A DNA stretch of 64,000 bases, taken from positions 1,357,362 through 1,421,361 of the forward strand of contig CBDESM010000003.1 in assembly GCA_965242485.1 (NCBI GenBank). The letters are read 5' to 3'. The stretch comes from Dehalococcoidia bacterium (GTDB lineage: Bacteria; Chloroflexota; Dehalococcoidia; Bin125). Shown here piece by piece: positions 3,262 through 54,843 of this stretch. The notes under the pieces were generated by a model that was given only the letters and a program-made list of their open reading frames with translations, searched no databases and had not been told where the DNA came from. The translations under genes were made by a program, and so were the position numbers. Position 1 is the first letter of the stretch. The number at the start of each line of letters is the position of its first letter.

Positions 3262-4440
3262 TCAGGTTCCGGCCCGCTGCCAGCGCGCGCCCGGCTCGAT
3301 CCGCCGCCGCGCCAGCCGGGCGAGCGCGGCAAACGCGCCGACGCCGATGCCGAGCCGAGCGCGGAGGCCCGCGTAGGTGGCGTCGCCGCGCGTGATCCGG
3401 CAGCAGGTGCGCCAGAAGCGATCGGAGTGCTGGAGCAGGCGCACGTAGGGCCAGGGCAGCGCGTGGAACAGCGCTTGGAGATCGCGGGCGGCGGCCAGCT
3501 CGGGCTCGATCTCGCGCTCGACCGCCGCCGCGTAGGCGCGGAAGTCCGCTTCCTCGCCGGCGATGATCCGCAGCGCCGCCGCGGCCGCCAGCCGGCCGGA
3601 GCGGATCGCGTTGCCGATGCCCTCGCCGGAGAGCGGGTCGATCAGCCCGGCCGCGTCGCCGACGAGGGCGGCGCGGCCGGCGTGGAGCGCGTCGCCGGGG
3701 TCGCGCAGGGGCAGGTGGTGGCCGCGCAGGCCCGACAGCCCGCCGCCGTCGAAGCCCTCGCTGCCGGCGTAGTCGGCCAGCTCGCGGCGCAGGCCGCCGG
3801 CGATGGCGGGGAAGCCGCCGACGCCGAGGTTGCAGTGGTCGCCCTTGGGGAAGACCCAGCCGTAGCCGCCGGCGAGGCTGCCCAAATCGAGGCCGACGTG
3901 CTCGCTCCAGCGCCCGCCGGGGCCGCCGGAGGCGCGCGCGGCGTTGGCCTCGATCGCGACGGCGGCACGCATGCGGGGCAGCCCCAGCGCGGCGCGGCAG
4001 GCCCCGTTCGCCCCGTCCGCGCCGATGATCGCGTCGGCCGAGAACGCGCCGTCGTCCGTGTGCACCGTCGTCCCCTCGAGCCCGCGGACGGCGATGCCCT
4101 GGCGGAATTCGGCGCCGGCCGCGGCCGCCCGCTCGGCCATGTAGGCGTCGAGCCGGGAGCGCTGGGTCATCAGCACCAGCGGCTCCGCGAAGTCGTGCTC
4201 GTACTCGCGCCCGCGGCGGTAGCGGACGCGGAAGCCGCGGATCTCGCGTTCGACGACCGGGTCCAGCGGATAGGGCAGCGCCTTGGCGGCGCTGATCAGC
4301 ACGCCGCCGCCGCAGGGCTTGTCGCGCGGGAAGGCGGCCCGGTCGAGCATCAGCACGCGCGCGCCGGCGGCGGCGAGGTCGTAGGCCGCGCTGGAGCCGG
4401 CCGGCCCCGCGCCGACGATGATCGCGTCGTAGCGGCTCAT
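3262..4440 (-). CDS. Geranylgeranyl reductase family FAD-dependent oxidoreductase
   Basis: Start MSRYDAIIVGAGPAGSSAAYDLA (GxGxxG FAD motif). FPRDKPCGGG and GDAAGLIDPLSGEGI motifs. ATGA overlap with plsY stop. The N-terminal 117 codons of the listed ORF are antisense-type extension. Confidence 0.75.
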   Translation of the reverse strand: MSRYDAIIVGAGPAGSSAAYDLAAAGARVLMLDRAAFPRDKPCGGGVLISAAKALPYPLDPVVEREIRGFRVRYRRGREYEHDFAEPLVLMTQRSRLDAYMAERAAAAGAEFRQGIAVRGLEGTTVHTDDGAFSADAIIGADGANGACRAALGLPRMRAAVAIEANAARASGGPGGRWSEHVGLDLGSLAGGYGWVFPKGDHCNLGVGGFPAIAGGLRRELADYAGSEGFDGGGLSGLRGHHLPLRDPGDALHAGRAALVGDAAGLIDPLSGEGIGNAIRSGRLAAAAALRIIAGEEADFRAYAAAVEREIEPELAAARDLQALFHALPWPYVRLLQHSDRFWRTCCRITRGDATYAGLRARLGIGVGAFAALARLARRRIEPGARWQRAGT

Positions 4441-5033
4441 CGCTCCGCCGCCCCGGCCGGGGCGGCCGCGCCGCGCTCGCGCAGGACCTTGTCGATTCCC
4501 GCCTTGAGGCCGGCCGCGATCGGCGCGGCGAAGCAGAAGCCGATCGCCGCGGGCGGGGCGCCGAAGGCGATCGCGAGGAAGGGCAGCGGCGCGGAGACGA
4601 GCAGGATGCCGAGCTCGGCCTTGCGCGTGATCAGGTAGACGATGCCGCCGACGACGAAGGTGGCGCCGAACTGGAGCGGCAGGAACGCGCCGGAAGCGCC
4701 GAGCGAGGCGGCCGCGGCGCGCCCGCCGTTGAAGCGCAGGAAGATCGGGAACATGTGCCCGGCCATGACCAGCGCGCCGGCCGCGGCCCACCAGCCGTGC
4801 TCGAGCCCGGCCCAGCGCGCGATCGAGACCGCGAGCAGGCCCTTGCCGATGTCGGCCAGGATGATGCCGACACCCGCGGCCTGGCCCGCGCCCTCGCGGG
4901 CCGCGTTGGCCGCGCCCACGTTGCCGTCGCCGGCGCGCCGCAGGTCCCCGCCCGTGAGCGCGCGGAAGACGAGCCAGGCGACGGGAATCGAGCCGAGCAG
5001 GTAGGCGGCTGCCAGGACGCCGGCCTCGGTCAC
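4437..5033 (-). CDS. plsY: Glycerol-3-phosphate acyltransferase PlsY
   Basis: 198 aa, multi-TM. GSIPVAWLVFRAL...GDGNVGAANA matches the PlsY signature. Confidence 0.8.
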   Translation of the reverse strand: MTEAGVLAAAYLLGSIPVAWLVFRALTGGDLRRAGDGNVGAANAAREGAGQAAGVGIILADIGKGLLAVSIARWAGLEHGWWAAAGALVMAGHMFPIFLRFNGGRAAAASLGASGAFLPLQFGATFVVGGIVYLITRKAELGILLVSAPLPFLAIAFGAPPAAIGFCFAAPIAAGLKAGIDKVLRERGAAAPAGAAER

Positions 5034-5076
5034 GGCCGGCTCCGCCGCCCCCGCCCGAACGCGCCGGCCGCCACCG

Positions 5077-6009
5077 TCAGTTCTGGCCGTCGTAGACGGG
5101 CGTGATCCAGTGCGCGTAGGCGTCGAGCCGGCCCAGGATCGCGTCGAAGAAGAGCCGCTGCAGCTGGCCGGTCACGTGCCCGATGCCGCCGTCGCCGACC
5201 TGCCGCCGGTCGACCGAGAGCAGCGGCGTCACGTGCGCCGCCGTGCCCGTCATGAACACCTCGTCGGCCAGCCAGAGCTCGCTGCGGTCGATCGAGCGCT
5301 CGACCGTCTCGATCCCCAGTTCCGTGCGGGCGAGCTCGATCACGGTGGCGCGGGTGATGCCGACGAGGATGTTGTCGCTCGAAGGCGGCGTGTAGATCAC
5401 GCCGTCCTGCACCATGAAGATGTTCTCGCCCGAACCTTCCGAGACGCTGCCGTCGTGGTTCAGCATGATCGCCTCGTCGAAGCCGTGGTGCACCGCCTCG
5501 GTGTTGGCCAAGGCCGAGTTGATGTAGACCCCGTTGACCTTCAGCCGCACCGGGATCGAGGTGTCGTCGGCCCGCCGCCAGGACGAGGTCATCACGTGCA
5601 CGCCGGCGTTGGTGTCGAGGTACGCGCCGAAGGGGGCGACGAACGCGAGGAAGTCGTCCTCGACGTCGTGCAGCCGCACGCCCAGGACCTCCTGCGACTT
5701 GTAGACCATCGGTCGGACGTAGCAGTCCTCCTTGAGGCCCGAGGCGGCGACCATCTCGTGGGTCAGCGCGCAGAGCTCGTCCTCGCTGTAGCGCAGCGGC
5801 ATCATCAGCCCGTGCGCCGATTTGCGTAGGCGCTGGTAGTGCTCGCGCATGCGGAAGAGGTAGAGCTGCTCGGTTTCCGCATTCCAGTTGGCGCGGATGC
5901 CCTCGAAGACCGCGGTGCCGTAGTTGAAGGCGTGGGTCATGACCCCGATCTTGGCGTCGGCGAGCGGCATCAATTCGCCGCGTAGGTGGGCCATCGGCGT
6001 GCCGGGCAT
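5077..6009 (-). CDS. ilvE: Branched-chain amino acid aminotransferase
   Basis: Start MPGTPMAHLRGEL with GGAGGAA RBS. Class IV aminotransferase features (FEGIRA, yeast-like VRPMVYKS). Confidence 0.8.
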   Translation of the reverse strand: MPGTPMAHLRGELMPLADAKIGVMTHAFNYGTAVFEGIRANWNAETEQLYLFRMREHYQRLRKSAHGLMMPLRYSEDELCALTHEMVAASGLKEDCYVRPMVYKSQEVLGVRLHDVEDDFLAFVAPFGAYLDTNAGVHVMTSSWRRADDTSIPVRLKVNGVYINSALANTEAVHHGFDEAIMLNHDGSVSEGSGENIFMVQDGVIYTPPSSDNILVGITRATVIELARTELGIETVERSIDRSELWLADEVFMTGTAAHVTPLLSVDRRQVGDGGIGHVTGQLQRLFFDAILGRLDAYAHWITPVYDGQN

Positions 6010-32102: not shown

Positions 32103-34937
32103 TTACTCACCCGGCTCCGTCAGCCGGCGGTTCGAGACCACGGGCTCCGAGGCCAGCATTCGCCGCAGCGGCGTCAGATCCGGCAGCCCCAGCACCTCCG
32201 CCAAGCCCGCATCCAGCCGTTCCCGCGCCGCGCAATCCGCCATCTCCGGCAAGGGCAGCAGCGTCTCCTCCGCCAATTCCTCGAACAGCGCCGCTAGCCG
32301 CTCCAGCTGCCCATCCGCCAGCTCGCGGACGTCGAGCACCGGCATTTCTTCCAAGTCGCCCTTCTTGAGGCTGACCCAGCCGCCTTCGGTTGTCGTTCGC
32401 GTGCCGAGCAGCGTGAGCAGTCCCAAACTGCTGTTCAGCCACAGCGCGAGGCCAAAATCATGCAGCTCTTCCGTGGTTTTGATCTCCCAGAAGACATTCG
32501 AGAGGACGTCCCGGTCGCATTTCATCGAAACCGTGCGGACGGTGTCCAAGCGCAACCGCTCCGCAACGAGCAGTCGCGCCGCCTTTTGCCAGAGATCCGT
32601 GGCGCTCTTCAATCTGCGTCCGGGTCGTGGTTTCGAGAGCGCTGCTAGATGTTTATTCGGTGCAACGCTCAGCGTTGTTCGTTCATTGGTGTCATGTCCG
32701 GCTACGAGCGGGTATGCCGTGTTGGTATCCGTATAGGTGAATCCGTCCAAGATGTCGCGGCGGTCCGGGCCGATGCTGCCGAGCTCGCCGAGCGGACAGA
32801 TTGGAAGCTCGGCTCTCGTCGACTGTCCTGGTACTTGGACCGTGCTACCGGCGAGCAGTGAGTGTGCTGCACGGGCGAGGTCGCCGCGCGAAAACTGCAC
32901 TCCGTCCCATTGTTCTCCCGTCGCGTCGCCTTGCGGCAGCGATATTGCTTCGCCGATGTGGCGGCCGTCGAGTTCGAGCAGGGCTGCGCCCGTTGCTTCG
33001 AGCTCGGCCGGGGGCGTCGCTCCGATCACGTCGGCGAGGCGGCCCGCGTCAAGCACGTTGTCGGGGTTTTCCCACAGATTCACGTAGGTCGTGCGCGACT
33101 CGCCTGTGTCCCCCTCCGCCCGTTTGGTCGCGATCAGCAGCGCTTCCGAGAGGTCGGTGCTGTCGGAGAAATTCCAGCGCTGCGGGTCGTGCGACGCGAT
33201 CACCATGTCCAAGCGGAAGTCGCGCTCGATCAGCGCCCGCGTCTGCTGCCACGAGCGGCCCGTGCAGACGGTCAGCGGCAGTACCAGCGCCAAGCGCCCC
33301 TCGCCGGCGCGGATTTTCGGCGTCACCGCGGCGACGAATGCAGCGCCGACGCCGGCTACGGCGGATGCGCCCTGCGACTTGAGCCGGGCCTTGATCTCGG
33401 ACTGGATTCGCGTCCGCTCCCTGTCCGGCAGGCTGCCGAAGAGCAGGCTCGAACGGGTGAACGGCGGGTTCATGATCGCCAAATCAAGCGGCGGCAGCAC
33501 CGCCGTATCAACTCCTTCTATTACCCCCCCCCCCCCCCCACTTATAGTATTCATCCCGCGTACCTTGGCGGGAGCAACGACCGCGACCGACTCGCCCGCG
33601 CCGAGCGGGTACTGCACGGCGGCCTCGCTCTGGCCGAGGAAATCGAGCGAGCCGAGCTTGACATCGTCGCTCGATGCTTCCAGCGGCATCACGTACAGGT
33701 TCATCCGGTCGAAGTGGATCGCCGGGTTCAGCATCGCCAAGCTGGTCGCCGCGAAGTGCACCGCCGAAAGCTGCACGTCGAACCCGTGCAGCGCCTGCTC
33801 GACCATCACCTTGTGCAGCGCGTCCTTCTTCTGCCCGCCCGCGGTCACGTGCCGCCGTTCCGCCTCCGACGCGACCGCCATCAGCAGCGTTCCGGTGCCG
33901 CAGGCGATGTCCGCGATGTTCAGCGAGGCCGGGAATTCGTGCTGCGCCCAATCCGTCTGCGGCGGCCACTGGTGGAAGACCAGCCGCGCCAGCATCGTCG
34001 CCGCCGGCACCGACGTGTAGTACGCCCCCGTGAATTTGGCGTCGGATAGCAGCGTGTGGAACAGCCGCCCCGACAAGTCGTGCCCCTCGACGTCGCGCGT
34101 CTGCCTGACCGCGTCGATCAGCGGGTCGATCACCGCGGCCTGCGCCGGCGCGGGCGCGTCGCAGAGGATGTCCAAGAGGTCCGCCGCCAGCTGGAAGACC
34201 GGCACGTAGTCGATCTCGTCGCAGATCGTGCGCCAAGCGTCGCGCAGCCCCGGCGCCCCGCGCTTGGCCGCCTCCGAAACCGTGGGCACCTGCGCGTGCG
34301 CGGCCGAGAGCCGCTCCTCGAAGGCGAGCGCGTTGAACAGCACCAGGCAGCCGATCCGCAGCGCCGCCGCCCGCTCCTTCTCCTTGTCCGACTCCGCGAT
34401 CGCGTCCGCGATCCGCTGCCCGATCCGCGCGTGCCGCGAGACTTCCTTGGCCGCCGTCTCCGTCGCGTAGCGCACCGCGCCGGCCGCCGCGGCCACGCGG
34501 TCGACGCCCTCGACGTGCAGGGGCAGCGCCCGCAGGAAATCGGCCAGCTGATGCGCGCTGCCGCTGCGCAGCTGCGGTTCCGGCTCGACCCGCTCCCGCG
34601 TGCTGTGCAGGTACCAGCTCAGATCCTCCGCCTCGGCTAGCGCCCGCCCCACGTCATCGGCCGTGTCCAGCCCCTGCGGATACAGCACCCCGATCCGCCC
34701 GATCGCGGCCGGGAACTCGCCGATTCGCTCCGCCAGCTGCGCGTCCAACTGCGCCCGTGCCCCCGCCCATTTGCACTCGACCAGCGCGAACTCGTCCCCC
34801 GCGAGCCGCTCGACGCGGATATCCGGCGCATCCCCGTCAAGCCGCTGCTCCGCCGCCGCCGCGATCCCCCGCGCCTTCAGCAACTCCCCCAGCAGCGTAT
34901 TCGCCGCCTCCTCCCGAGACCTCCATCGCCGCACCAT
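32103..34937 (-). CDS. Single-polypeptide nuclease + gamma-class N6-adenine DNA methyltransferase + C-terminal target-recognition region. Type IIL/IIG (MmeI-family-like) restriction-modification enzyme.
   Basis: 945 aa from ATG 34937 (MVRRWRS...). PD-(D/E)xK-like N-terminus (APDIRVERLAGDEFALVECKWAG). GAYYTS (the MmeI-type 'HYTS' motif X). Motif I IADIACGTGTLLMAV. Motif IV IMNPPF. A long C-terminal region. The listed ORF extends to a GTG at 35123 through a degenerate duplicated segment. Confidence 0.65.
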   Translation of the reverse strand: MVRRWRSREEAANTLLGELLKARGIAAAAEQRLDGDAPDIRVERLAGDEFALVECKWAGARAQLDAQLAERIGEFPAAIGRIGVLYPQGLDTADDVGRALAEAEDLSWYLHSTRERVEPEPQLRSGSAHQLADFLRALPLHVEGVDRVAAAAGAVRYATETAAKEVSRHARIGQRIADAIAESDKEKERAAALRIGCLVLFNALAFEERLSAAHAQVPTVSEAAKRGAPGLRDAWRTICDEIDYVPVFQLAADLLDILCDAPAPAQAAVIDPLIDAVRQTRDVEGHDLSGRLFHTLLSDAKFTGAYYTSVPAATMLARLVFHQWPPQTDWAQHEFPASLNIADIACGTGTLLMAVASEAERRHVTAGGQKKDALHKVMVEQALHGFDVQLSAVHFAATSLAMLNPAIHFDRMNLYVMPLEASSDDVKLGSLDFLGQSEAAVQYPLGAGESVAVVAPAKVRGMNTISGGGGGVIEGVDTAVLPPLDLAIMNPPFTRSSLLFGSLPDRERTRIQSEIKARLKSQGASAVAGVGAAFVAAVTPKIRAGEGRLALVLPLTVCTGRSWQQTRALIERDFRLDMVIASHDPQRWNFSDSTDLSEALLIATKRAEGDTGESRTTYVNLWENPDNVLDAGRLADVIGATPPAELEATGAALLELDGRHIGEAISLPQGDATGEQWDGVQFSRGDLARAAHSLLAGSTVQVPGQSTRAELPICPLGELGSIGPDRRDILDGFTYTDTNTAYPLVAGHDTNERTTLSVAPNKHLAALSKPRPGRRLKSATDLWQKAARLLVAERLRLDTVRTVSMKCDRDVLSNVFWEIKTTEELHDFGLALWLNSSLGLLTLLGTRTTTEGGWVSLKKGDLEEMPVLDVRELADGQLERLAALFEELAEETLLPLPEMADCAARERLDAGLAEVLGLPDLTPLRRMLASEPVVSNRRLTEPGE
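33524..33539. repeat. Homopolymeric C16 (G16 on the coding strand) inside the RM gene
   Basis: Read directly from the sequence: ttaCCCCCCCCCCCCCCCCactt. On the coding strand it encodes SGGGGGV in-frame, and it is flanked by unusually AT-rich codons. Confidence 0.9.
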
Positions 34938-34939
34938 GC

Positions 34940-35207
34940 CCCCATTGTCGCACAGCGCCCCGGCCGTCCCGTTTAACCGCGCGTGCCGCGAGATTTCCTT
35001 GGCCGCCGTCTCCGTCGCGTAGCGCACCGCGCCAGCGGCGGCCACGCGGTCGACGACCTCAATGTGCTGGGGCAGCGCCCGCCCCATATCCTCGGTCGTG
35101 TCCAGCCCCTGCGGATACAGCACCCTGATTTACCCGATCGCCGCCGGGAACGCGCCGATTCGCTCCGCCAACTGCGCCCGGGCCCCCGCCCATTTGCACT
35201 GGTGCGA
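34940..35207 (-). pseudogene. Degenerate duplicate of codons ~45–115 of the RM gene (contains an in-frame TAA)
   Basis: Minus-strand translation reads ...QCKWAGARAQLAERIGAFPAAIG*IRVLYPQGLDTTEDMGRALPQHIEVVDRVAAAGAVRYATETAAKEISRHAR. This is homologous to the RM gene segment KWAGARAQLDAQLAERIGEFPAAIGRIGVLYPQGLDTADD...SRHAR. About 90% DNA identity to 34420–34760. Confidence 0.4.
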
Positions 35208-46254: not shown

Positions 46255-46358
46255 CGCCAGCCTCCTGCGCCCACAGGCTAGCGTCTCGGCGCGCGGAGTC
46301 CGCGAATGTCCTGCATAGAATGCCCGTGCCATGCTCGCGTCGCTGGAGGAACCGACTG

Positions 46359-47840
46359 ATGCCCCGCAATCTTGAAAATCGCACCATCTTCACTGGCGAC
46401 TGCCTCGACATCCTGCGCGGGGTCAACTCGGATTCGGTGGACCTGATCTACCTCGATCCGCCGTTCAACTCAGATCGGACCTACGGCAACGATTTCGATG
46501 ACCACTGGCAGCTCGACCGGTTGCCGGAGGCCGTGATGAAGCGGCTGCTGGAGACGATGGGGCGGGTGACGCAGGACAACGACGGGGCGGGCGCTGTGAT
46601 CAACGCCGCCGGCAAGGTGGCCGGCGAGTCGACTCAGGCGTACCTCACCTACATGTTCGAGCGCATCGCGGAGATGGCGCGGGTCTTGAAGCCGACGGGG
46701 AGCATCTACCTGCATTGCGACGACACGGAAGGCGCGTGGCTGAAGGCGGTGATGGATGCCGTGTTCGGGCGCAGCTGGTACCGCAACGAGATCGTCTGGC
46801 AGCGGACGAGTGCGCACAACGATGCCGGGGCATTCGGCCGCGTCGCCGATTACGTCCTGTTCTACAGCCGTTCGCCGATCAATGAAGCGGCCGTCGTCAC
46901 GCCGCTGAAGGATGAGCACGTGGCCGCGAAGTACCGGCATGACGATGGCGATGGGCGGGGCAGGTACCGCGCCGACGGCGACCTGACGGGGGCCGACCTC
47001 TCCGACGGCGAGAGCGGACGGCCGTGGGGCGGTTACGACCCGTCCGCGCGCGGGCGGCATTGGGCGGTGCCCAAGGCCCGCGGGCGCGGCGAGTATGCCG
47101 ACTGGATCGCGGAGAACATCATTCCGGGATATGAGAAGATCGAGGGCATCCACGCCCGTTTGAATGAGCTGGATGCGGCGGGTTTGATCTACAGGACGAG
47201 CAAGGGCACGCCCAACATCAAGCGCTATCTGAGCGCTTCAAAGGGGCAGGTGCCGACGGCGATCTGGACCGACATCCCGCCTGTGAACTCGCAGGCCGCA
47301 GAGAAGACCGGATATCGGACCCAGAAACCGCTCAAGCTGCTCGAACGAATCATCGCTGCCTCGTCAAACGAGGGCGACCTCGTGCTCGATCCGTTCTGCG
47401 GCTGCGCGACGGCGTGCGTCGCCGCCGAGCGCTTGGGCCGGGATTGGGTCGGCATCGACCAGAATGACGAAGCGCTCCAACAGGTCAAGATCCGGCTCGC
47501 CCAGCAGGAACCCGGAATCGCGCTCTGGGCGGAGAAGGTCGTGCACCGGACGCGCCCGCCCAAGCGGACGGATGAAGGCGACCTGACGCTTTCGGATCCG
47601 ATTCCGCTCTCGGTCAAGCGCGAGATGTACGAGGAGCAAAACGGACGCTGCAATGCGTGGACGATCGGCTGCGAAGAACGCCCTTCGATCTTCAACATTG
47701 AGGTGGATCACATCCGCCCCCGCAGCGCCGGCGGTGCGCACGAGCGGTCGAATCTCCAACTCCTCTGCGGCTGGTGCAACCGCTCCAAGCGTGACCGCAC
47801 GATGGATTACCTCGCACAGCGCATCGCCGAAAGAGGGTGA
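46359..47840 (+). CDS. DNA methyltransferase (PF01555 N4/N6, beta-class) fused to a C-terminal HNH endonuclease domain
   Basis: Start MPRNLENRTIF after GGAGGA. LIYLDPPFNSD (motif IV near the N-terminus). LVLDPFCGCATAC (motif I near the C-terminus, hence beta-class). C-terminal EVDHIRPRSAGGAHERSNLQLLCGWCNRSKRD is an HNH motif. Confidence 0.75.
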   Translation: MPRNLENRTIFTGDCLDILRGVNSDSVDLIYLDPPFNSDRTYGNDFDDHWQLDRLPEAVMKRLLETMGRVTQDNDGAGAVINAAGKVAGESTQAYLTYMFERIAEMARVLKPTGSIYLHCDDTEGAWLKAVMDAVFGRSWYRNEIVWQRTSAHNDAGAFGRVADYVLFYSRSPINEAAVVTPLKDEHVAAKYRHDDGDGRGRYRADGDLTGADLSDGESGRPWGGYDPSARGRHWAVPKARGRGEYADWIAENIIPGYEKIEGIHARLNELDAAGLIYRTSKGTPNIKRYLSASKGQVPTAIWTDIPPVNSQAAEKTGYRTQKPLKLLERIIAASSNEGDLVLDPFCGCATACVAAERLGRDWVGIDQNDEALQQVKIRLAQQEPGIALWAEKVVHRTRPPKRTDEGDLTLSDPIPLSVKREMYEEQNGRCNAWTIGCEERPSIFNIEVDHIRPRSAGGAHERSNLQLLCGWCNRSKRDRTMDYLAQRIAERG

Positions 47841-48128
47841 ATGATGGATTGGCAAGTGGTGCTCAGCACATTCGTCGGAGCGTTGACAGGATCACTGCCA
47901 GTGATTCTCTTGACTTGGTGGCTCACGATGTCAGCACGCAAGTCGGCTGCGAGATCGCAGCGGCGCATTGAAGGATCACTGAAAGGAATTAACGATGCTC
48001 TTCAAGAAATGGCATACTGGGGCGGCTTTGATGCAGAACGCCAAATTGAAGCAGACATGGAAGCAGCGCGTGCGAAGACTCGGGCGCATGAAGAAGGAGA
48101 GGATCCTGAGAATCGGGGAGACGCCTGA
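47841..48128 (+). CDS. Small hypothetical membrane protein (low-GC)
   Basis: 95 aa. TM segment VVLSTFVGALTGSLPVILLTWWLTM. Starts 1 nt after the MTase stop. About 50% GC. Confidence 0.35.
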   Translation: MMDWQVVLSTFVGALTGSLPVILLTWWLTMSARKSAARSQRRIEGSLKGINDALQEMAYWGGFDAERQIEADMEAARAKTRAHEEGEDPENRGDA

Positions 48129-48132
48129 TGAG

Positions 48133-48615
48133 ATGGTCGTCGTCTCTGATCGGCTGCATGATTTAGATTGGATCCCAGTCACGGCGACTAAATTTCCAAT
48201 CCGTTGGTGGATCGGAGCGGATGGCTCGCGGCGAATCGAGCCAGTGAAGGACGCCACACCTAGGAGTCTTCAATTAGCATTCGAGATCAATACGACCACT
48301 GAAATTCGCTTGCTTTGGCTCTCAGCTGGACGCTTCTTACATTTCGAACGCGCATACCACCAAAGTGATGGCCAGTGCGTGATCGAAAGAGGCTCCGGGA
48401 AGATCATATTCTATAACAGATACGCTATTGCGCGCGAAGAGGTGTTCAGTCGTGTACGCCTGATAATCGAATATCTGCCGAAAGAAGACTCATGGTCGGA
48501 AATTGCTTATGCTGAATTCTTGGAGCTTGATACATCCTCTCTTCGCGATGGCTGGAAACGCTGGTTCACAGAATGGATTCGCTTTGCCCGAGTCAGCATC
48601 TTCGGAGATCGGTAG
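48133..48615 (+). CDS. Hypothetical protein (low-GC)
   Basis: Start MVVVSDRL chosen 12 nt after GGGGAG and 5 nt after the previous stop. The longer 47995 start would overlap the small gene by 134 nt. W/Y/F/K/I-rich, genuine-looking composition. Confidence 0.35.
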   Translation: MVVVSDRLHDLDWIPVTATKFPIRWWIGADGSRRIEPVKDATPRSLQLAFEINTTTEIRLLWLSAGRFLHFERAYHQSDGQCVIERGSGKIIFYNRYAIAREEVFSRVRLIIEYLPKEDSWSEIAYAEFLELDTSSLRDGWKRWFTEWIRFARVSIFGDR

Positions 48616-48745
48616 GCTGCGCGGGCTGATCGTCGTTGCGAGGGGTTTGGGGAGATGCGCGAGATCAGCGGGGGCGGGGTGATTGCTGGCGGAGCGGCTT
48701 GCGGGGAGCCTTGTTGGGGGCGGGGCTTGCCGCTCCGCTTGTCGG

Positions 48746-49471
48746 CTATGTTGCGTCTGCGTCGGTCGCGTCTGCGTCGGTCGCGTCTGCATCGGTTGCG
48801 TCTGCATCGGTTGCGTCGGTCGTGCTTTCGGCGATTTCGGCGATTTGGCGGGAGCCGTCGCGCCGGCATTGCCAGCGACCGTCGTCGGTTCGCTGGACGT
48901 GGGGGCCGGACTCGAAGCGGTTGCCAACGTGCCGGTATTCGATGTTGAACCTCTGGTGGTAGCCGGGAATGTCCAGGCCGCCGACGAGAATTGTCAGGAT
49001 CACTGCAGGCCTGCCCGGCCTGCCTTCAATGGCCGGCCTGCCTGGGATACCCGGCCTGCCTGGGATACCCGGCATGGTCTCAACTATGTCAGTGTAGGGA
49101 TCGTCCGGCACCGGCGGCACCGGCGGCACCGGCGGCACCGGCGGCACCTCTGGCTGCGCCTCTATCGCCGGCTGCGCCGGTATGACCACCCTGGTGGTCC
49201 GCGTCTGCCAGCCCAAGCCGGTCTCGCAGGCAAGGTCGGCCAGCGCTTGGGCGACCCGGCCCCGCTCGGCCGGGGTGCTGCCGTGGACGGGCCAAGAGCT
49301 GTCTTCCGGCGTCACGTCGCTGTTGCATACGAAGATGCCGCCTTCGGAGACGCAGTGATCGTCGGCGGAGGCGGAGCCGCCCCAGAGTGCGCTGATTCCG
49401 GCGACCGCGGCCAGCGCGACGACGGCGGCGGCGAGCGGCATGGCTGCCTGCTTCATGGCGGTGAGGATCAT
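48746..49471 (-). CDS. Putative secreted low-complexity repeat protein ((PPV)4, collagen-like GIPGRP repeats, (DAT)n tail)
   Basis: Signal peptide MILTAMKQAAMPLAAAVVALAAVAGISALWGGSASA. The repeats are encoded by the DNA tandem repeats listed below. The upstream part of the listed ORF is the C-terminus of the IS remnant. Confidence 0.4.
   Translation of the reverse strand: MILTAMKQAAMPLAAAVVALAAVAGISALWGGSASADDHCVSEGGIFVCNSDVTPEDSSWPVHGSTPAERGRVAQALADLACETGLGWQTRTTRVVIPAQPAIEAQPEVPPVPPVPPVPPVPDDPYTDIVETMPGIPGRPGIPGRPAIEGRPGRPAVILTILVGGLDIPGYHQRFNIEYRHVGNRFESGPHVQRTDDGRWQCRRDGSRQIAEIAESTTDATDADATDADATDADATDADAT
48756..49150. repeat. Cluster of short tandem DNA repeats (15-mer gtctgcgtcggtcgc x~5; 21-mer ggcctgcctgggatacccggc x~2.5; 9-mer ggcaccggc x~5)
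   Basis: Directly visible in the sequence. In-frame with the minus-strand ORF, so copy-number change would alter protein length without a frameshift. Confidence 0.7.
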
Positions 49472-49479
49472 GTTGCTCT

Positions 49480-50480
49480 CCAACCTGAAGGTCAGCGCCT
49501 TCGACGCTCGGTCGGCCTCGTCAGCGCAGGGGCGACCAGCTCCCCGCGGACGCGCCTCGGGCGCGTTTCGGCTGCGCCCAGAATAGGCGATCCGCGACTG
49601 TGGGGCGCGGGACGGGCCGGAGGGGGCGGGCGGGGCGCTGGGCGAGGGCGGAAGTGGCGTACCGGCGGAAGATCGCAGAGGTGGAGAATCTGGATGCGAA
49701 GCAGGAGGAGATCGAGGTGGAACCGCGGCAGTTGGGAGCCCGCACCCGGCTGCACAGATCGTCCCGATCAGCCGTTCGGCCTTGCCGTTGGTGCGCGGGG
49801 TGCAGGACCGTGTGCGCAAGTGGCGCAGGTCCCAGCGCCCGGCACTCTTCGTGCCAGCGGTCGTTGAGGCAGGCGGGCCCGTTGTCGGTCATCACCTGCT
49901 CAACCGCGAGGCCGCGTTTGGCGCATCAGCGGACGGCGCGGCGCAGAAAGGCGACTGTGTGCTCGGCCCGCTTCGAGGGCGGCGCTTCGGCGCAGGCCAG
50001 CGCGAGCGATCGTCCACGGCGATGTGCGGGTATGCCAGCCGGTACCGGGGCAGAGCGTGCGCGGGTCGGCCAGGATCACCTTGTCGGGCTGGTAGAAGCG
50101 GTCCAGATTCTTGATGTCGACGTGCAGCAGCTCGCCTCACCCGCTCGCGTTCGTAGCGCAGCACCAGCGGCTTCGAAGCCAGTATCTGGCACGAGATGCC
50201 GAACCGCCGCCGCCCCTGCCGACGGTCGAGGCAGGTGCCGCCCAGCTCCACCAGCGGTGCACGGTCAAGCGGCCCGCTTCCTGCCCGCGGGCTGTCTCCG
50301 CGATGCTCGTCCTGCCTCGGCTAGGCGCACCGCGCGCAGCCTCGTCTCGATCGAATGGCGCATCTGCAGCCCCGCTCCGCCGCCACCAGCCAGCGGGACC
50401 CCTTGGGGGGGCATCTCGTTCAACACCAGTCTCGTAGGCGGTCCCCACCCAATCAGCTGTCCCGAACCTCTGTGGTTTTG
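49480..50480 (-). mobile_element. Degraded IS481-family transposase (pseudogene, at least 3 frameshifts and internal deletions)
   Basis: Minus-strand fragments in different frames: HTH-like MRHSIETRLRAVRLAEAG; LTVHRWW; GELLHVDIKNLDRF (catalytic DDE region); HIAVDDRSRW; MTDNGPAC...; PRTNGKAERLIGTI (C-terminal motif). No intact ORF. Confidence 0.65.
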
Positions 50481-50509: not shown

Positions 50510-51295
50510 TTACGACAACCGCGCTGCTAGCTTGCCGCGTTCCGACCACTTCGCCGGTTCGGCCACTTCCCTGATGAGGTTGTAATCGACATGCGTCCAG
50601 TAGGGCAGAGCGTCGTTGAAGAGAGCGATGCGGGGCAGATTGCTCACTCCATTGGATGAATGGGCGATGTCGCCGAACGCCGCGTATGCGGCATTGATGG
50701 CAGCGTCCGCTGACGGTTGATCGCGGCCGTTCACCCACTGGACCAACGCGGTGCGCTCTCCGACCACGTGAAAGTCAATAGTCCAGCGTCGTCCCGATCG
50801 GCCTTCGGCCTGGACTCCGGGGTTGAACGGGACCTGCAGCTCGGTGAGCCAGCTGCCCACCCGATCTTGACTGTCCAGCCGTGAATCTTCCTTCTTCATC
50901 CGGGGAGCACCTGTGAACCACAGGTCAGCGAGGCGGAGCGCAGTCTGCGCGACCGAGTAGACCGCAAAGGGCAATTCGCCAAGTGTCTGGCAGTCACGAC
51001 GCAGCCGGCCGCGGGAGATCGCGACTCCGCTGGTTCGCTGAATGTGGTCCAACAACTCGCTCTGTTTCTTCGTGAGCGCGTCAATGCCTCGCCGAGTCCA
51101 GAGCCAGCCCAAGGCTTCGCCGAAATCGGTGACCGCGTGCGCGTCGCCGTCACTGACGACATACACGTCAATCATCGTCCTGTCCGGATACAGGAGAGGC
51201 GTCGTGACGCGCACGGCTGAGTTGGGGAGTTCTTCGCAGCTGAAATGGCCATGAGCCTTTCCCGCGAGCGCACGGGAGATTTGCGTGGTGTTCAT
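50510..51295 (-). CDS. Uncharacterised ~260-aa protein, family 'A' copy 1 (array member)
   Basis: Paralogue of 51843..52637 and 52653..53444. Shared N-terminal motif TPLLYPD..IDV.V....G...V.DFG.A..WL and central L.FT.GV...GRSG..WT.DF. ATGA overlap with the upstream family-B gene. Confidence 0.55.
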   Translation of the reverse strand: MNTTQISRALAGKAHGHFSCEELPNSAVRVTTPLLYPDRTMIDVYVVSDGDAHAVTDFGEALGWLWTRRGIDALTKKQSELLDHIQRTSGVAISRGRLRRDCQTLGELPFAVYSVAQTALRLADLWFTGAPRMKKEDSRLDSQDRVGSWLTELQVPFNPGVQAEGRSGRRWTIDFHVVGERTALVQWVNGRDQPSADAAINAAYAAFGDIAHSSNGVSNLPRIALFNDALPYWTHVDYNLIREVAEPAKWSERGKLAARLS

Positions 51296-51768
51296 AGCAG
51301 CACCTCTCCCTGTACTTCGGGCATCATAAACGACCCGGTGTGGTGGATGCGGGCTTCAGCGCAGAACTGGAGCCATGCGAAGTCTGGCTCATTCCACGTC
51401 GCTGTGATGTCTTTCGGCTCAAATGCATACACTTCTTCACTTTTATCAGTCCAGATCTGCTTATGCGTTCCCGGATGTCTGCTGCCGTCCAAATTTCGGT
51501 GGTTTACCGCACCCATGTCCAAGCCATAGATGCGCCAGCGCCGCGCATAGATGAGATTGAAGGAGAGTTTGCTTGCGCTCGGGTTGTACCAGCCGTGCAT
51601 CTGCAGTTGCTCTGGGACATCTGCCAGAATCGGTGCCGTGAACATCGCCGCCCCAGCATGGCCAGGGTCTTGGCTCCACTCAATGTCGTCATTGATCTGT
51701 TTCTCGCTTTCGTAGATGAGTCTCCGGACCTCATCCCCTGATAGCTGTTTTGCCACTGCAAGCACCAA
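51292..51768 (-). CDS. Uncharacterised ~150-aa protein, family 'B' copy 2 (array member)
   Basis: Paralogue of 53441..53890. Shared GWYNP...KL.F.......IYGL.MG..H..LD......H...WT......Y.P.DI.A.W..P. Lower GC (~50%). Confidence 0.5.
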   Translation of the reverse strand: MVLAVAKQLSGDEVRRLIYESEKQINDDIEWSQDPGHAGAAMFTAPILADVPEQLQMHGWYNPSASKLSFNLIYARRWRIYGLDMGAVNHRNLDGSRHPGTHKQIWTDKSEEVYAFEPKDITATWNEPDFAWLQFCAEARIHHTGSFMMPEVQGEVLL

Positions 51769-51842
51769 TCTTTCGCACGCGCCGTCTGCATGCTAGCGCT
51801 GCTCAAGATGGCGTGTCAGGCGCCGGCGGCGCGGAAGCCGTG

Positions 51843-52637
51843 TTATGGGGAGCTGCTTCGGGGCGCGCGGAGGATGCGCTCGAACTCGTCCCGGTCGGTC
51901 CAGCGGGCGACGCGGGAGACGGTCGCCAAACGGTTGAAATCCTCGTCGGTCCATGGCGCGGAGTCGCAGTGGAACAGGGATACGAGCTGGCAGCGGGCCG
52001 GTTCTGGAAGCGCATCGCGGATGTCGCGGCAGCCGATGTAGGCGTGTTCGGCAATGCGGGGGGCGGAGTCGGGGTCCGAGGTTCGGAGATGGAAGACCAA
52101 GGAGTGCAACGGCGGCACGGCGACGTCGAAGTCGACCGTGTACTCGTGGCCTGATCGGCCCGCGACTCGGACGCCGGAGGTGAAGGCGATCTCGCGGTGG
52201 CGGAACCAGCGTTGGACATCGGATGAGGCCGTGCCGTCGGCTGGATGGCCGTCGATCCAGCGGAGGTCGGCGACGCGCGCTGCCGCTTGGGCGACGAACA
52301 TGATCGCGGAGCCGATTTCGCCGAGGCTGGCGCAGCGGTAGGAGATCGGGCCGCCATCGAATTCGAGCCGGTCGACCGGTGCGATGCCGGCGAGGTGCTG
52401 CTCCTGGTTCGGCGAGGGCCGGTCGTCCCAGAAGTGCATTTGGAGCCGCGCCATCGCTTCGCCGTAGTCGGTCGCGATGAACTCGCCGTCTTCGATGCAG
52501 ACGAACACGTCGATCACGTCGTTGTCGGGGTACAGCAGCGGCGTCGCGATGCGGACCGCTCCGTTTTCGGTGAGGGAGCACGGGTACTGCGGACCGAGCT
52601 GCCGCGCCGCCTCGTCGCGAAGCTCCGACGGGGTCAC
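51843..52637 (-). CDS. Uncharacterised ~260-aa protein, family 'A' copy 2
   Basis: 264 aa, MTPSELRDEAARQLGPQYPCSLTENGAVRIATPLLYPDNDVIDVFV...; lies 15 nt downstream of copy 3. Confidence 0.55.
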   Translation of the reverse strand: MTPSELRDEAARQLGPQYPCSLTENGAVRIATPLLYPDNDVIDVFVCIEDGEFIATDYGEAMARLQMHFWDDRPSPNQEQHLAGIAPVDRLEFDGGPISYRCASLGEIGSAIMFVAQAAARVADLRWIDGHPADGTASSDVQRWFRHREIAFTSGVRVAGRSGHEYTVDFDVAVPPLHSLVFHLRTSDPDSAPRIAEHAYIGCRDIRDALPEPARCQLVSLFHCDSAPWTDEDFNRLATVSRVARWTDRDEFERILRAPRSSSP

Positions 52638-52652
52638 GTCAGCGCTCCGAAT

Positions 52653-53444
52653 TCATGCGGCGGCTATGGGGCTGCGGAGCACCTCTTCGAGGTCCGAGCG
52701 GTCCGACCATCTCGCGATTCGGGAGACGTGTTCGACCAAGCCGTAGTGCTGGTCGCTCCAAATGTCGGCTTGATCGTCGAAGAGCGAAACGAGTTGCGGA
52801 ATAGGACCGCTCGCCCCGATTTGGCTGAGGTCGACGCAGGCCGCCAGCACATGCTCCGAGAGCCGGCGCGCGGCAGCCCGATCGCCGGTGCTGAGGAGGA
52901 ACACGTATGAAGGCGGAAGCGGCGGGGTCATGATGAAGTCGACCGTCCAAGTGGCGGATGATCGTCCACGGACCCGCTCTCTCTGGCGAAATGGAATCTC
53001 CCGGCTGCGAAGCCACTCGTCGACTTCTTCAGCTGTGGTGCGGAACGTCTGGCTACGGAACGTGAACCAGATGTCGGCCACGCGGAGGGCCGCCTGCCCG
53101 ACCTTGGCGACGGAATCGGCGAGGCTGCCCGGATCGTCGCATTGGAGGCTCAGATCGCCTTGATCCAGATCTACGCCGACCGTGTTCACGACATCGCGCA
53201 GCATCCGTTCTTGGCCGTCCGTGAGACGCCCGGTGCGCGACCTCGTTTCGAGCCAGCCGAGGGCGTCCCCGAAGTCCGAAACGACGATGCGGCCGTCCTG
53301 CTCGGTGACGAAGACGTCGATGCCGTCACCGTCGGGCAGCAGCAGCGGAGTTTGCACCCGGAGCGCGCCCCTCTCGGTCACGGTGCAGGCGTATTGCGCG
53401 GGCAGGCTGTCTCGGAGCCGCGCGCAGAGCTCGTTGGGAGTCAT
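52653..53444 (-). CDS. Uncharacterised ~260-aa protein, family 'A' copy 3
   Basis: 263 aa, MTPNELCARLRDSLPAQYACTVTERGALRVQTPLLLPDGDGIDVFV...; ATGA overlap with the upstream family-B gene. Confidence 0.55.
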   Translation of the reverse strand: MTPNELCARLRDSLPAQYACTVTERGALRVQTPLLLPDGDGIDVFVTEQDGRIVVSDFGDALGWLETRSRTGRLTDGQERMLRDVVNTVGVDLDQGDLSLQCDDPGSLADSVAKVGQAALRVADIWFTFRSQTFRTTAEEVDEWLRSREIPFRQRERVRGRSSATWTVDFIMTPPLPPSYVFLLSTGDRAAARRLSEHVLAACVDLSQIGASGPIPQLVSLFDDQADIWSDQHYGLVEHVSRIARWSDRSDLEEVLRSPIAAA

Positions 53445-53890
53445 GAGAATCCCTCCAACCGGATGGGCGGCGGGTAGAGCTGCCCGTCATGCAGCAAGTG
53501 CGATTCCCGTCGGAACTCCGACCAGACCTGCACGGGGTTCGACCAATCGGCCGAGATGTCGTCGGGCAGATAGCGATTCTGGTCGCGACGCTCTTCGGTC
53601 CAGTAGTGCTTGTGCGGACGGCGCGGATTCGCGATGTCCAGTTCGGGGTGGGTGATTCCCATGCACAGCCCGTAGATTCGCCCGCGGTCCGGTCGAAACA
53701 CGGTGAAGGTGAGTTTTTCCGTGCGCGGGTTGTACCAGCCCTCGAGGCAATGATCATTCGGGTCGGAGGTCTCGACATCGACGCGGAAGCGGAAGGTACG
53801 GGCGTTCCGACGATCGGGCGGCCAATGAATGTCGCCCTCGATGCGCATGGCGAGGTCGCGGAGGAACGCATCTACGTCGTCCTTGTTCAT
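53441..53890 (-). CDS. Uncharacterised ~150-aa protein, family 'B' copy 1
   Basis: Start MNKDDVDAFLRDLAMRIEGDIHW. The upstream part of the listed 275-aa ORF overlaps uppP in another frame and is discarded. Confidence 0.5.
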   Translation of the reverse strand: MNKDDVDAFLRDLAMRIEGDIHWPPDRRNARTFRFRVDVETSDPNDHCLEGWYNPRTEKLTFTVFRPDRGRIYGLCMGITHPELDIANPRRPHKHYWTEERRDQNRYLPDDISADWSNPVQVWSEFRRESHLLHDGQLYPPPIRLEGFS

Positions 53891-53967
53891 TGAGATCGCT
53901 GTCTGCTTTCCGCCTGCGGGGGCGTTTCGCTTGATGCGCCCCGGTCCCTGATCAGAATAACCGTCGG

Positions 53968-54843
53968 TCAGGCGCCGGCGGCGCGGGCGAGGAGGATGGC
54001 GGAGGCGGCTGCGAGGCAGTAGAGGGCGAAGGGGGCGAGGGTGGCGGCTTTGGCGATGTGGAGGAGGGCGCGGATGCCGAGGAGGGCGCTGAGGAAGGCG
54101 GCGGTTGCGCCGATGGCGAGGGCGGCGGGGTCGGCTGAGGCGCCGTCTCGGACGACGTCGTAGAGGGCGAGGAGGCCTGCGCCGGCGAGGGCGGGGATGG
54201 CGAGCCAGAAGGCGAATCTGGTGGCGGCTTCGCGGTTCGCGCCGAGGGAGATGGCGGCGGAGATGCACATGCCGGAGCGGGAGACGCCGGGGAGGACGGC
54301 GATGGCTTGGGCGACGCCGATGGCGGCTGCCTTGGCGAGCGAGAGGCCGGCGAGGCCGCCGGGGGAGGGCTCTGCGCCGGCGGCTCCATGGGCATCAGCA
54401 TCGGCAGGGGCGCCGGCGCCCGATCGCGTCGGAGCGAGGCGGCGTTCGGCGGCGATGAGGATGAGGCCGGTGGCGAGGAGGAAGGCGGCGGCGGGGGTCG
54501 GGCCGCGGAGCTGGTCTTCGAGCAGTTGCCAGGCGATTGCGCCGGCGGCGGCGATGGGGAGCGTGGCGGCGATGCCGAGGGCGAGCAGGCGTCGGGGCTG
54601 GACGCCGTCGACGGGGCGCGCGCGGGCGGAGCGGAGACCAGAGAGGAGGGCGATGATCTCGCGGCGGTAGGCGACGAGGATGGCGGCGAGAGCGCCGGCG
54701 TGGACGGCGGCGTCGAAGGCGAGGCCGGGGTCGTCCCAGCCGAAGAGCCAGCGGGCGATGGAGAGGTGTCCGCTGCTGGAGACGGGGAGGAATTCGGTCG
54801 CGCCTTGGATGATGCCGAGCAGGGCGGCTTGGAACAGGGGCAC
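53968..54843 (-). CDS. uppP: Undecaprenyl-diphosphate phosphatase
   Basis: ALLGIIQGATEFLPVSSSGHL and later GVSRSG motifs; about 8 TM helices. Start assumed at GTG (VPLFQAALLG); the exact start is uncertain. Confidence 0.7.
   Translation of the reverse strand: MPLFQAALLGIIQGATEFLPVSSSGHLSIARWLFGWDDPGLAFDAAVHAGALAAILVAYRREIIALLSGLRSARARPVDGVQPRRLLALGIAATLPIAAAGAIAWQLLEDQLRGPTPAAAFLLATGLILIAAERRLAPTRSGAGAPADADAHGAAGAEPSPGGLAGLSLAKAAAIGVAQAIAVLPGVSRSGMCISAAISLGANREAATRFAFWLAIPALAGAGLLALYDVVRDGASADPAALAIGATAAFLSALLGIRALLHIAKAATLAPFALYCLAAASAILLARAAGA

Follow-up and report, generated by a model that had tools for sequence, protein, structure and literature searches.

We analyzed a 64,000-nt stretch of a Dehalococcoidia genome (contig CBDESM010000003.1; the whole stretch is referred to as the window) around a gene for a 493-aa DNA methyltransferase that bears an HNH nuclease domain at its C-terminus (methylase-HNH) and the two small genes that follow it, gene 2 and gene 3. 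Comparison of the window with 15 related or distant loci (coded L001-L015) best supported a reading in which methylase-HNH and the gene pair are two separable modules. We judged the chances to be about even that the first module is a resident, self-contained restriction-modification (RM) enzyme and that the second is a separate phage-exclusion cassette of low guanine-plus-cytosine (GC) content located at its stop codon. The features of the locus, all on the plus strand, with the evidence for each in brackets, are as follows:

46315..46358, plus strand: 5' leader common to cassette copies in another genomic context (start of blastn homology, unrelated sequence upstream)
46359..47840, plus strand: methylase-HNH gene, 493 aa (PF01555, PF01844, PADLOC MTase_II E 1e-49)
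46437..47486, plus strand: methyltransferase domain, residues 27-376 (DPPF motif IV, target-recognition region, motif I DPFCGCAT; Pfam coordinates)
47649..47816, plus strand: HNH (beta-beta-alpha-metal) nuclease domain (Cys431...Cys438, D450-H451, N465, C470, C473, N474)
47841..48128, plus strand: gene 2, predicted 95-aa small membrane protein (homologues, ratio of nonsynonymous to synonymous substitution [dN/dS], hydropathy, flanking charges)
47995..48615, plus strand: gene 3, whose product is most likely soluble, beta-rich and 206 aa long (homologues, conserved start, dN/dS, AlphaFold2 [AF2] model)
47995..48128, plus strand: gene 2/gene 3 overlap, 134 nt, out of frame (+1) (codon-position variability)
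48180..48490, plus strand: hypervariable core of gene 3, with conserved 5' and 3' ends on either side (nucleotide identity, proportion of synonymous differences [pS])

The order methylase-HNH, gene 2, gene 3 was kept in six of the seven independent loci that carry the pair (the window, L003/L004, L013/L014, L015, L005/L008 and L006/L007), and the methylase stop and the gene 2 start abutted or overlapped in all six. Blastn homology between the window and L003, L004 and L013 started at 46315-46316, and the sequence further upstream was unrelated. Against L003/L004 the homology stopped at 48624 and the flanks were again unrelated, with genes for fn3-repeat giant proteins and a luciferase-like gene replacing the CoA-transferase gene. 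Since the homology is sharply bounded between two contexts, the three genes moved or were rearranged as a single block (46315-48624). No direct or inverted repeats suggestive of a transposon were found around 46315 or 48624. The conserved order, the contiguous stop and start codons and the block common to two unrelated contexts would suit one integrated three-gene defence or anti-defence system, in which the small proteins are obligate accessory subunits, regulators or effectors; an accessory role within one module had been proposed in the initial annotation of this DNA. In particular, the sharing of the block by the window and L003 argues for functional or at least transcriptional linkage, a point against separability. 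On the other hand, L001 has a 91%-identical methylase-HNH gene at the syntenic site and lacks the pair. L001 and L005, which come from the same sample and have flanks that are 95-96% identical, are distinguished here by a clean indel of ~870 nt whose start coincides with the methylase stop. The reverse case was found in L012, where a diverged pair (94-aa and 228-aa genes with the same +1 overlap) is present without the methylase, between adh_short and prmA/dnaK-operon (housekeeping) genes. None of the four distant methylase-HNH loci carried the pair, and pair homologues formed about 15 clusters as against at least 120 for the enzyme. Because of L001, L012, the four distant loci and the differing composition and divergence described below, a role for the small proteins as dedicated subunits is disfavoured, and we regard the integrated system as unlikely. 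The three-gene arrangement noted initially was confirmed as a gene order, and its interpretation as a single module is disfavoured.

Base composition also separated the two modules. The GC content over 47800-48700 was 0.47-0.54 versus about 0.65-0.74 in the surrounding DNA, in agreement with the low GC content initially reported for the small genes. GC content at third codon positions (GC3) was 0.50-0.58 in the small genes, 0.84 in the methylase gene and 0.89 in the CoA-transferase gene; methylase-HNH therefore resembles host genes in this respect. The pair had a GC content of 0.51-0.57 in every host, L012 included. Together with the synonymous divergence, GC3 points to different histories for the enzyme and the pair. 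At the junction, the methylase TGA (47838-47840) directly abuts the ATGATG of gene 2 at 47841, so that the 1-nt gap described initially does not exist, and GAAAGAGGG lies just 5' of the gene 2 start. Promoter and terminator scans gave nothing exceeding shuffled controls. We propose that a ~0.8-kb low-GC cassette was inserted exactly at the methylase stop codon and that it would be expressed by translational coupling to the methylase gene.

The methylase-HNH protein matched PF01555 (N6_N4_Mtase; residues 27-376, E 2e-44, 152.6 bits with a cut-off of 26.7) and PF01844 (HNH; residues 447-480, E 1e-9, 38.8 bits with a gathering threshold of 21.4), and PF14279 was also above threshold (32.6 vs 27.5). 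The DPPF, FCGCAT and DHIRPRS...NLQLLCGWCNRSKRD motifs, from which a PF01555-type beta-class core and a complete C-terminal HNH motif had been deduced initially, were all present, and both assignments held. An alignment of 26 family members (A4) showed that motif IV lies N-terminal to motif I, with D33, P34, P35, F36 and D344-T351 invariant. The HNH residues D450, N465, C470, C473, N474 and K477 were likewise invariant, and the window protein retains the catalytic D450-H451 pair as well as C431 and C438, so that its catalytic Asp-His pair, metal-binding Asn residues and structural Cys ligands are intact. The target-recognition region was ~50% identical across phyla in the same alignment. By general knowledge, DPPF suggests N6-adenine as the predicted target base. 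Across seven close loci (21 pairs), the dN/dS of the methyltransferase part was 0.055 and that of the HNH part (residue 431 to the end) was 0.050, while the whole gene gave 0.05-0.07 (6 loci); the value for the HNH part indicates that strong purifying selection maintains the nuclease domain. PADLOC labelled the protein as a Type II/III-like methyltransferase, with MTase_II and MTase_III as the best models. The REase_MTase_IIG model was not among its top 25 PADLOC matches, so that by sequence the protein does not belong to the known IIG families. PHROGs matched the methyltransferase region (phrog_67) and the HNH region separately, and solved structures aligned to the motif regions only.

A family search of 5.8 billion proteins returned at least 8000 matches. 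The best 120 clusters all aligned with 96-100% of the query, their identities being 47-91%, and PF01844 was recorded in 109 of them. By these matches the methylase-HNH architecture is shared, at full length and 47-58% identity, by at least 120 clusters and is abundant in genome and metagenome protein collections. In the four distant loci (L002, L009-L011) the methylase-HNH gene was solitary and had no conserved neighbour; three had transposases, an integrase, a Type ISP enzyme or HsdR/Lhr-like genes nearby, and the fourth had a SocA_Panacea (antitoxin-type) gene. In these loci and in the window, the nuclease and the methyltransferase are joined in one chain and there is no separate partner gene. 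The gene occupied the same chromosomal position beside the CoA-transferase gene in the window, L001, L005, L006 and L015. In L015 an extra gene for a 310-aa Dam-like (D12/alpha-class) methyltransferase with EPFAGGG and DPPY motifs (4350-5282) is inserted between the CoA-transferase and methylase-HNH genes. The initial annotation had also considered a phage-type orphan methylase. However, none of 217 cultured phage records covered at least 80% of methylase-HNH, the matches being to the methyltransferase part only, and the best 80 IMG/VR loci ended at residue 442 or earlier without reaching the HNH domain. Since phage and IMG/VR relatives end before this domain, the fusion is cellular and a phage-type enzyme is not supported. 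Among plasmids, one of 674 records covered at least 80% of the protein.

In our proposal, this Dehalococcoidia lineage has inherited methylase-HNH vertically as a resident gene, one of a very large chromosomal family whose members are usually solitary. The beta-class methyltransferase, with its built-in target-recognition region, would methylate a fixed short motif, while the tethered HNH domain would nick or cut DNA at or near unmodified sites, and the protein would thereby act as a self-contained, one-polypeptide RM enzyme. The main rival to this proposal is that methylase-HNH is a housekeeping-type orphan methyltransferase, whose HNH domain serves repair or recombination nicking, DNA binding or dimerisation, and that the pair was inserted as a selfish or moron-like element, unrelated to the enzyme and without a defence role. 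Several observations weigh against an RM enzyme and on the side of this rival. Strong vertical conservation and the conservation of the target-recognition region are also compatible with a housekeeping orphan methylase; vertical transmission at one fixed locus, the dN/dS of 0.05, the host-like composition and the ~50% identity of the target-recognition region across phyla all point the same way, and most loci lack a partner nuclease or second methylase. In addition, eight of the 26 aligned relatives, which form the closest outgroup (P0002, P0003, P0004, P0007, P0011, P0012, P0014 and P0017; 495-533 aa), carry D-R, with Arg replacing the catalytic His. This sister clade keeps the HNH Asn and Cys residues, and some of its members bear a 30-aa acidic insertion after DPPFNS. 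The substitution indicates that the HNH domain can persist without nuclease activity. Finally, literature searches yielded no experimental paper on a characterised methylase-HNH fusion and no cleavage, methylation or phage data for any member of the family. Against the orphan methylase, the D-H...N...N and Cys ligands are intact in the clade of the window protein and are as constrained as the methylase core, outgroup copies lie near transposases, an integrase, Type ISP and HsdR-like genes, and the patchy spread across phyla is typical of RM genes. We therefore hold the orphan methylase to be a real but less probable alternative to the RM enzyme.

Methylase-HNH shares features with several known systems and also differs from them. 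Rz/Rz1 phage spanins, which bear on the small genes, are taken up below. As with Type IIC/IIG enzymes, a solitary gene without a separate partner encodes the nuclease and the methyltransferase of methylase-HNH as a single chain. However, Type IIC/IIG enzymes such as MmeI, BcgI and Eco57I have an N-terminal PD-(D/E)XK nuclease, a gamma-class methyltransferase and a C-terminal recognition domain (general knowledge and PMC4081073), whereas here a beta-class PF01555 methyltransferase comes first, the HNH domain is C-terminal and cleavage is predicted. The PF01555 core, with motif IV (DPPF/Y) before motif I, is shared with the solitary beta-class methyltransferases CcrM, M.MboIIA, M.RsrI and YhdJ-type enzymes (PDB 6pbd, 1g60, 1eg2; NCBIfam PRK11524), but only the motif regions are similar (E 4e-18 to 1e-12 over ~70 residues), the match is below NCBIfam cut-offs and an HNH domain is missing from all of these enzymes. 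Phage methyltransferases of PHROG 67 (for example, Streptomyces phage Hippo gp48 and Mycobacterium phage Amgine gp37) were 36-39% identical over residues 5-380 and IMG/VR relatives were 35-45% identical, but both groups end before the HNH domain. The HNH domain itself, with its beta-beta-alpha-metal D-H...N...N pattern and Cys ligands, is like those of Cas9/IscB and McrA-type proteins, and methylase-HNH gave weak hidden Markov model matches to IscB and Cas9d and a weak match to a Cas9 structure. Unlike these proteins, it has no RNA-guide or modification-reader domain, the partner of the HNH domain here being a methyltransferase.

By homology and substitution pattern, genes 2 and 3 are genuine conserved genes, as the initial annotation had supposed. 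Gene 2 homologues formed 16 clusters (63-86% identity) and gene 3 homologues 15 clusters (48-76% identity), and dN/dS ranged over 0.13-0.29 in gene 2 and 0.11-0.30 in gene 3. Both genes are rare: an exhaustive profile search of 1.84 billion representatives gave only five matches for the small genes, a GTDB scan found one species only, a Dehalococcoidia metagenome-assembled genome, and JGI metagenome and IMG/VR scans found no relatives. Tblastn of gene 3 against phages and plasmids returned noise only. Neither gene had a significant match in Pfam, PADLOC, PHROGs or NCBIfam, including member-by-member scans of alignment A5; PADLOC protein models gave no match at E <= 0.1, and profile searches against PDB sequences gave none. 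The lack of a family match in Pfam, PHROGs, NCBIfam and PADLOC is what chance open frames in a low-GC intergenic patch would also show. However, 15-16 homologue clusters for each gene with identity down to 35-48%, dN/dS of 0.1-0.3 and, where gene 2 lies outside the overlap, its classical variability at third codon positions refute such a reading, to which we attach almost no credence.

The gene 2 product has a single hydrophobic helix (residues 6-24; Kyte-Doolittle 19-residue maximum 2.08), which agrees with the single transmembrane segment initially described. The helix is followed by a +4 juxtamembrane stretch and an acidic helical tail with a net charge of -7 (residues 47-95). From the helix and its flanking charges, an N-out/C-in topology was predicted.

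Gene 3 had initially been taken as a ~160-aa protein starting at 48133 behind a GGGGAG ribosome-binding site. In five loci the codon at 48133 is indeed ATG, but it is ATA in L003 and ACG in L005, where gene 3 is nevertheless intact. On the other hand, a start codon (ATG or GTG) 46-47 codons further upstream (47995 in the window) was present in all seven loci, with an AGGA/GGAGG-like motif 5-10 nt 5' of it in each. The upstream start was kept even in the distant pair of L012, despite differing gene 2 amino acids there, and this pair also has the +1 overlap arrangement. Since 48133 is not a start codon in two of the seven loci and the upstream start occurs in all of them, 48133 is probably the wrong start. 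Codon-position variability was in agreement. The variability of gene 2 at positions 1/2/3 was 0.13/0.06/0.41 before the overlap and 0.27/0.18/0.21 in its distal half; position 3, at 0.41 ahead of the overlap, dropped within it first to 0.27 and later to 0.21, and in the distal overlap position 1 of gene 2 (equal to position 3 of gene 3) was the most variable, at 0.27. This shift indicates that the +1 frame is the constrained frame in the distal overlap. Similarly, the AF2 model of the 206-aa protein had a pLDDT (predicted local distance difference test) of 72.7 as compared to 59.8 for the 160-aa model, and residues 36-41 of the extension form a strand in it. Codon-position variability and the structure model thus suggest that the upstream extension is coding, and gene 3 most likely spans 47995..48615, encodes 206 aa and shares 134 nt with gene 2, read in the +1 frame. 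The overlap (47995-48128) encodes both the acidic tail of gene 2 (net -7) and a basic N-terminus of gene 3 (net +9, residues 1-46).

We also considered whether gene 3 could depend on programmed +1 ribosomal frameshifting out of gene 2, the product then being a membrane-anchored fusion protein. The gene 3 frame is indeed +1 to gene 2 and open through the overlap in all seven loci, and the codon at 48133 is not a start in two of them. However, the start codon and Shine-Dalgarno (SD)-like motif at the head of the open frame are conserved in all seven loci and suffice for independent initiation of gene 3, and every locus keeps the stop and the acidic tail of gene 2. A frameshift is accordingly very improbable.

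Rz/Rz1 phage spanin genes have a second gene that starts inside the first in the +1 frame, and the first encodes an N-terminally anchored helical membrane protein. Genes 2 and 3 resemble them in that gene 2 encodes a predicted anchored helical membrane protein and gene 3 starts within it in the +1 frame. Unlike in Rz/Rz1, gene 3 encodes a 206-aa, beta-rich protein without a lipoprotein signal, and there is no lysis cassette. A spanin pair was rejected on these grounds, the N-terminus of gene 3 being basic (+9) with no hydrophobic signal, Cys or lipobox, and the PHROG spanin match was insignificant (E 0.29).

The central part of gene 3 was far more diverged than the rest of the locus. Over 48180-48490 the nucleotide identity to L013, L005 and L006 was 0.40-0.60, as compared to ~0.8-0.97 for the methylase gene, 0.7-0.85 for gene 2 and 0.7-0.8 for 48495-48615 in the same loci. 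The gene 3 core had diverged beside a methylase gene that is 90-96% identical. The pS of gene 3 was 0.65-0.86 (saturated) versus 0.24-0.50 for the methylase gene. Since synonymous sites are saturated, the gene 3 alleles are old and were recombined into place, not just fast-evolving, and we propose that the core consists of ancient divergent alleles swapped by recombination.

Foldseek searches with the 206-aa model pointed to one class of proteins. Nearly all of the top 50 PDB matches were tail-tube, Hcp, pyocin-tube or major tail proteins (best E 1.6e-4), and most named matches in BFVD were of the same tube class (best E 1.7e-5, TM-score up to 0.59). A fold search with the 160-aa model gave the same tube direction without significance; weak SRA/MspJI-like matches of that model failed to recur when the better 206-aa model was used and were set aside. 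Like tail-tube, Hcp and pyocin-tube proteins, gene 3 is predicted to form a beta-sandwich with a long hairpin and flanking helices. Unlike in those systems, no other tail or type VI secretion system (T6SS) genes lie near it. The likeness is tempered by the medium confidence of the model (pLDDT 72.7), by TM-scores of 0.3-0.6 and by the lack of any Pfam, PHROG or PDB sequence match of gene 3 to tube-protein families. We therefore treat the resemblance of the modelled gene 3 protein to tail-tube/Hcp proteins as a lead rather than a classification.

In our proposal, gene 2 would provide a 95-aa membrane anchor and gene 3 a 206-aa soluble beta-sandwich protein. Together they may form a phage-exclusion pair, a variable sensor or decoy with its membrane partner, which rides on the methylase transcript and is not a subunit of the enzyme. 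Because of the ancient hypervariable alleles, the membrane partner and the location at the edge of a variable island with PDC-M24-like genes, phage exclusion is the most plausible guess for genes 2 and 3. A more specific version of this idea seems to us a long shot. In it, the pair would be an undescribed phage-exclusion module, in which gene 3 is a tail-tube-like hypervariable decoy or sensor for phage tail components, held at or signalling through the membrane by its 95-aa partner, and which spreads via the methylase-HNH stop codon with co-expression; the acidic tail and the basic N-terminus may pair.

The initial annotation had placed the locus next to a second RM-type enzyme island. The immediate neighbours are instead DUF1828 and DUF6978 genes, which matched the PADLOC candidate system PDC-M24:

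50510-51295, 51843-52637 and 52653-53444, minus strand: DUF1828 genes (PDC-M24B, E 1e-45 to 1e-71)
51292-51768 and about 53441-53900, minus strand: DUF6978 genes (PDC-M24A, E 6e-36)

They form a PDC-M24-like array at 50510-54268 (minus strand) in the order B-A-B-B-A, a candidate defence system, while related loci have a single B-A pair beside bacA. Literature searches on PDC-M24 found nothing relevant. The enzyme possibly meant is a 1006-aa open reading frame (ORF) at 32103-35123 (minus strand), the only other RM-like ORF found. It lies ~11 kb upstream of methylase-HNH with housekeeping genes in between, and its PADLOC matches, to models of Type II, Type I and Type IIG methyltransferases, were all weak (best E 1.7e-9), with no Pfam match.

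Between the cassette and the array, the sequence held several further elements. A minus-strand ORF (48746-~49470) encodes a protein with a signal peptide and proline-rich repeats but no family match; a 15-nt tandem repeat at 48750-48833 (GTCGCGTCTGCGTCG, 4-5 copies) encodes DATDA repeats at its C-terminus. Just upstream of a minus-strand ORF encoding a signal-peptide protein, 49507-49573 (minus strand) matched the full length of Rfam RF02276, the type II hammerhead ribozyme (46.4 bits with a gathering threshold of 37; E 2e-6 for the whole window). Both the CGAAAC core and the CUGANGA core were present; this was the sole Rfam match in the 64-kb window, and it was absent from seven related loci. 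At about 49730-49790 (minus strand), the peptide 'TPRTNGKAERLIGTI' resembles the C-terminal end of an rve-type transposase and looks like a remnant, since stop codons precede it. In addition, 49640-49734 matched the 3' part of the L001 carboxyl-transferase gene at 83%. The island appears to be a graveyard of rearrangements.

Taken as a whole, methylase-HNH is a new member of an abundant architecture that is annotated but uncharacterised, while the gene pair, by the searches made here, has no described relatives and an unusual gene anatomy. The immediate impact is limited because the cassette is confined to a few uncultured Dehalococcoidia and its role is putative. The cassette nevertheless offers a clean natural case of a long, conserved, out-of-frame gene overlap, and the ancient allelic polymorphism of gene 3 beside a nearly invariant gene is a pattern typical of host-parasite conflict genes. 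If methylase-HNH is a self-contained beta-class RM enzyme, it would represent a compact kind of restriction enzyme that differs in type from the PD-(D/E)XK/gamma-class Type IIG enzymes.

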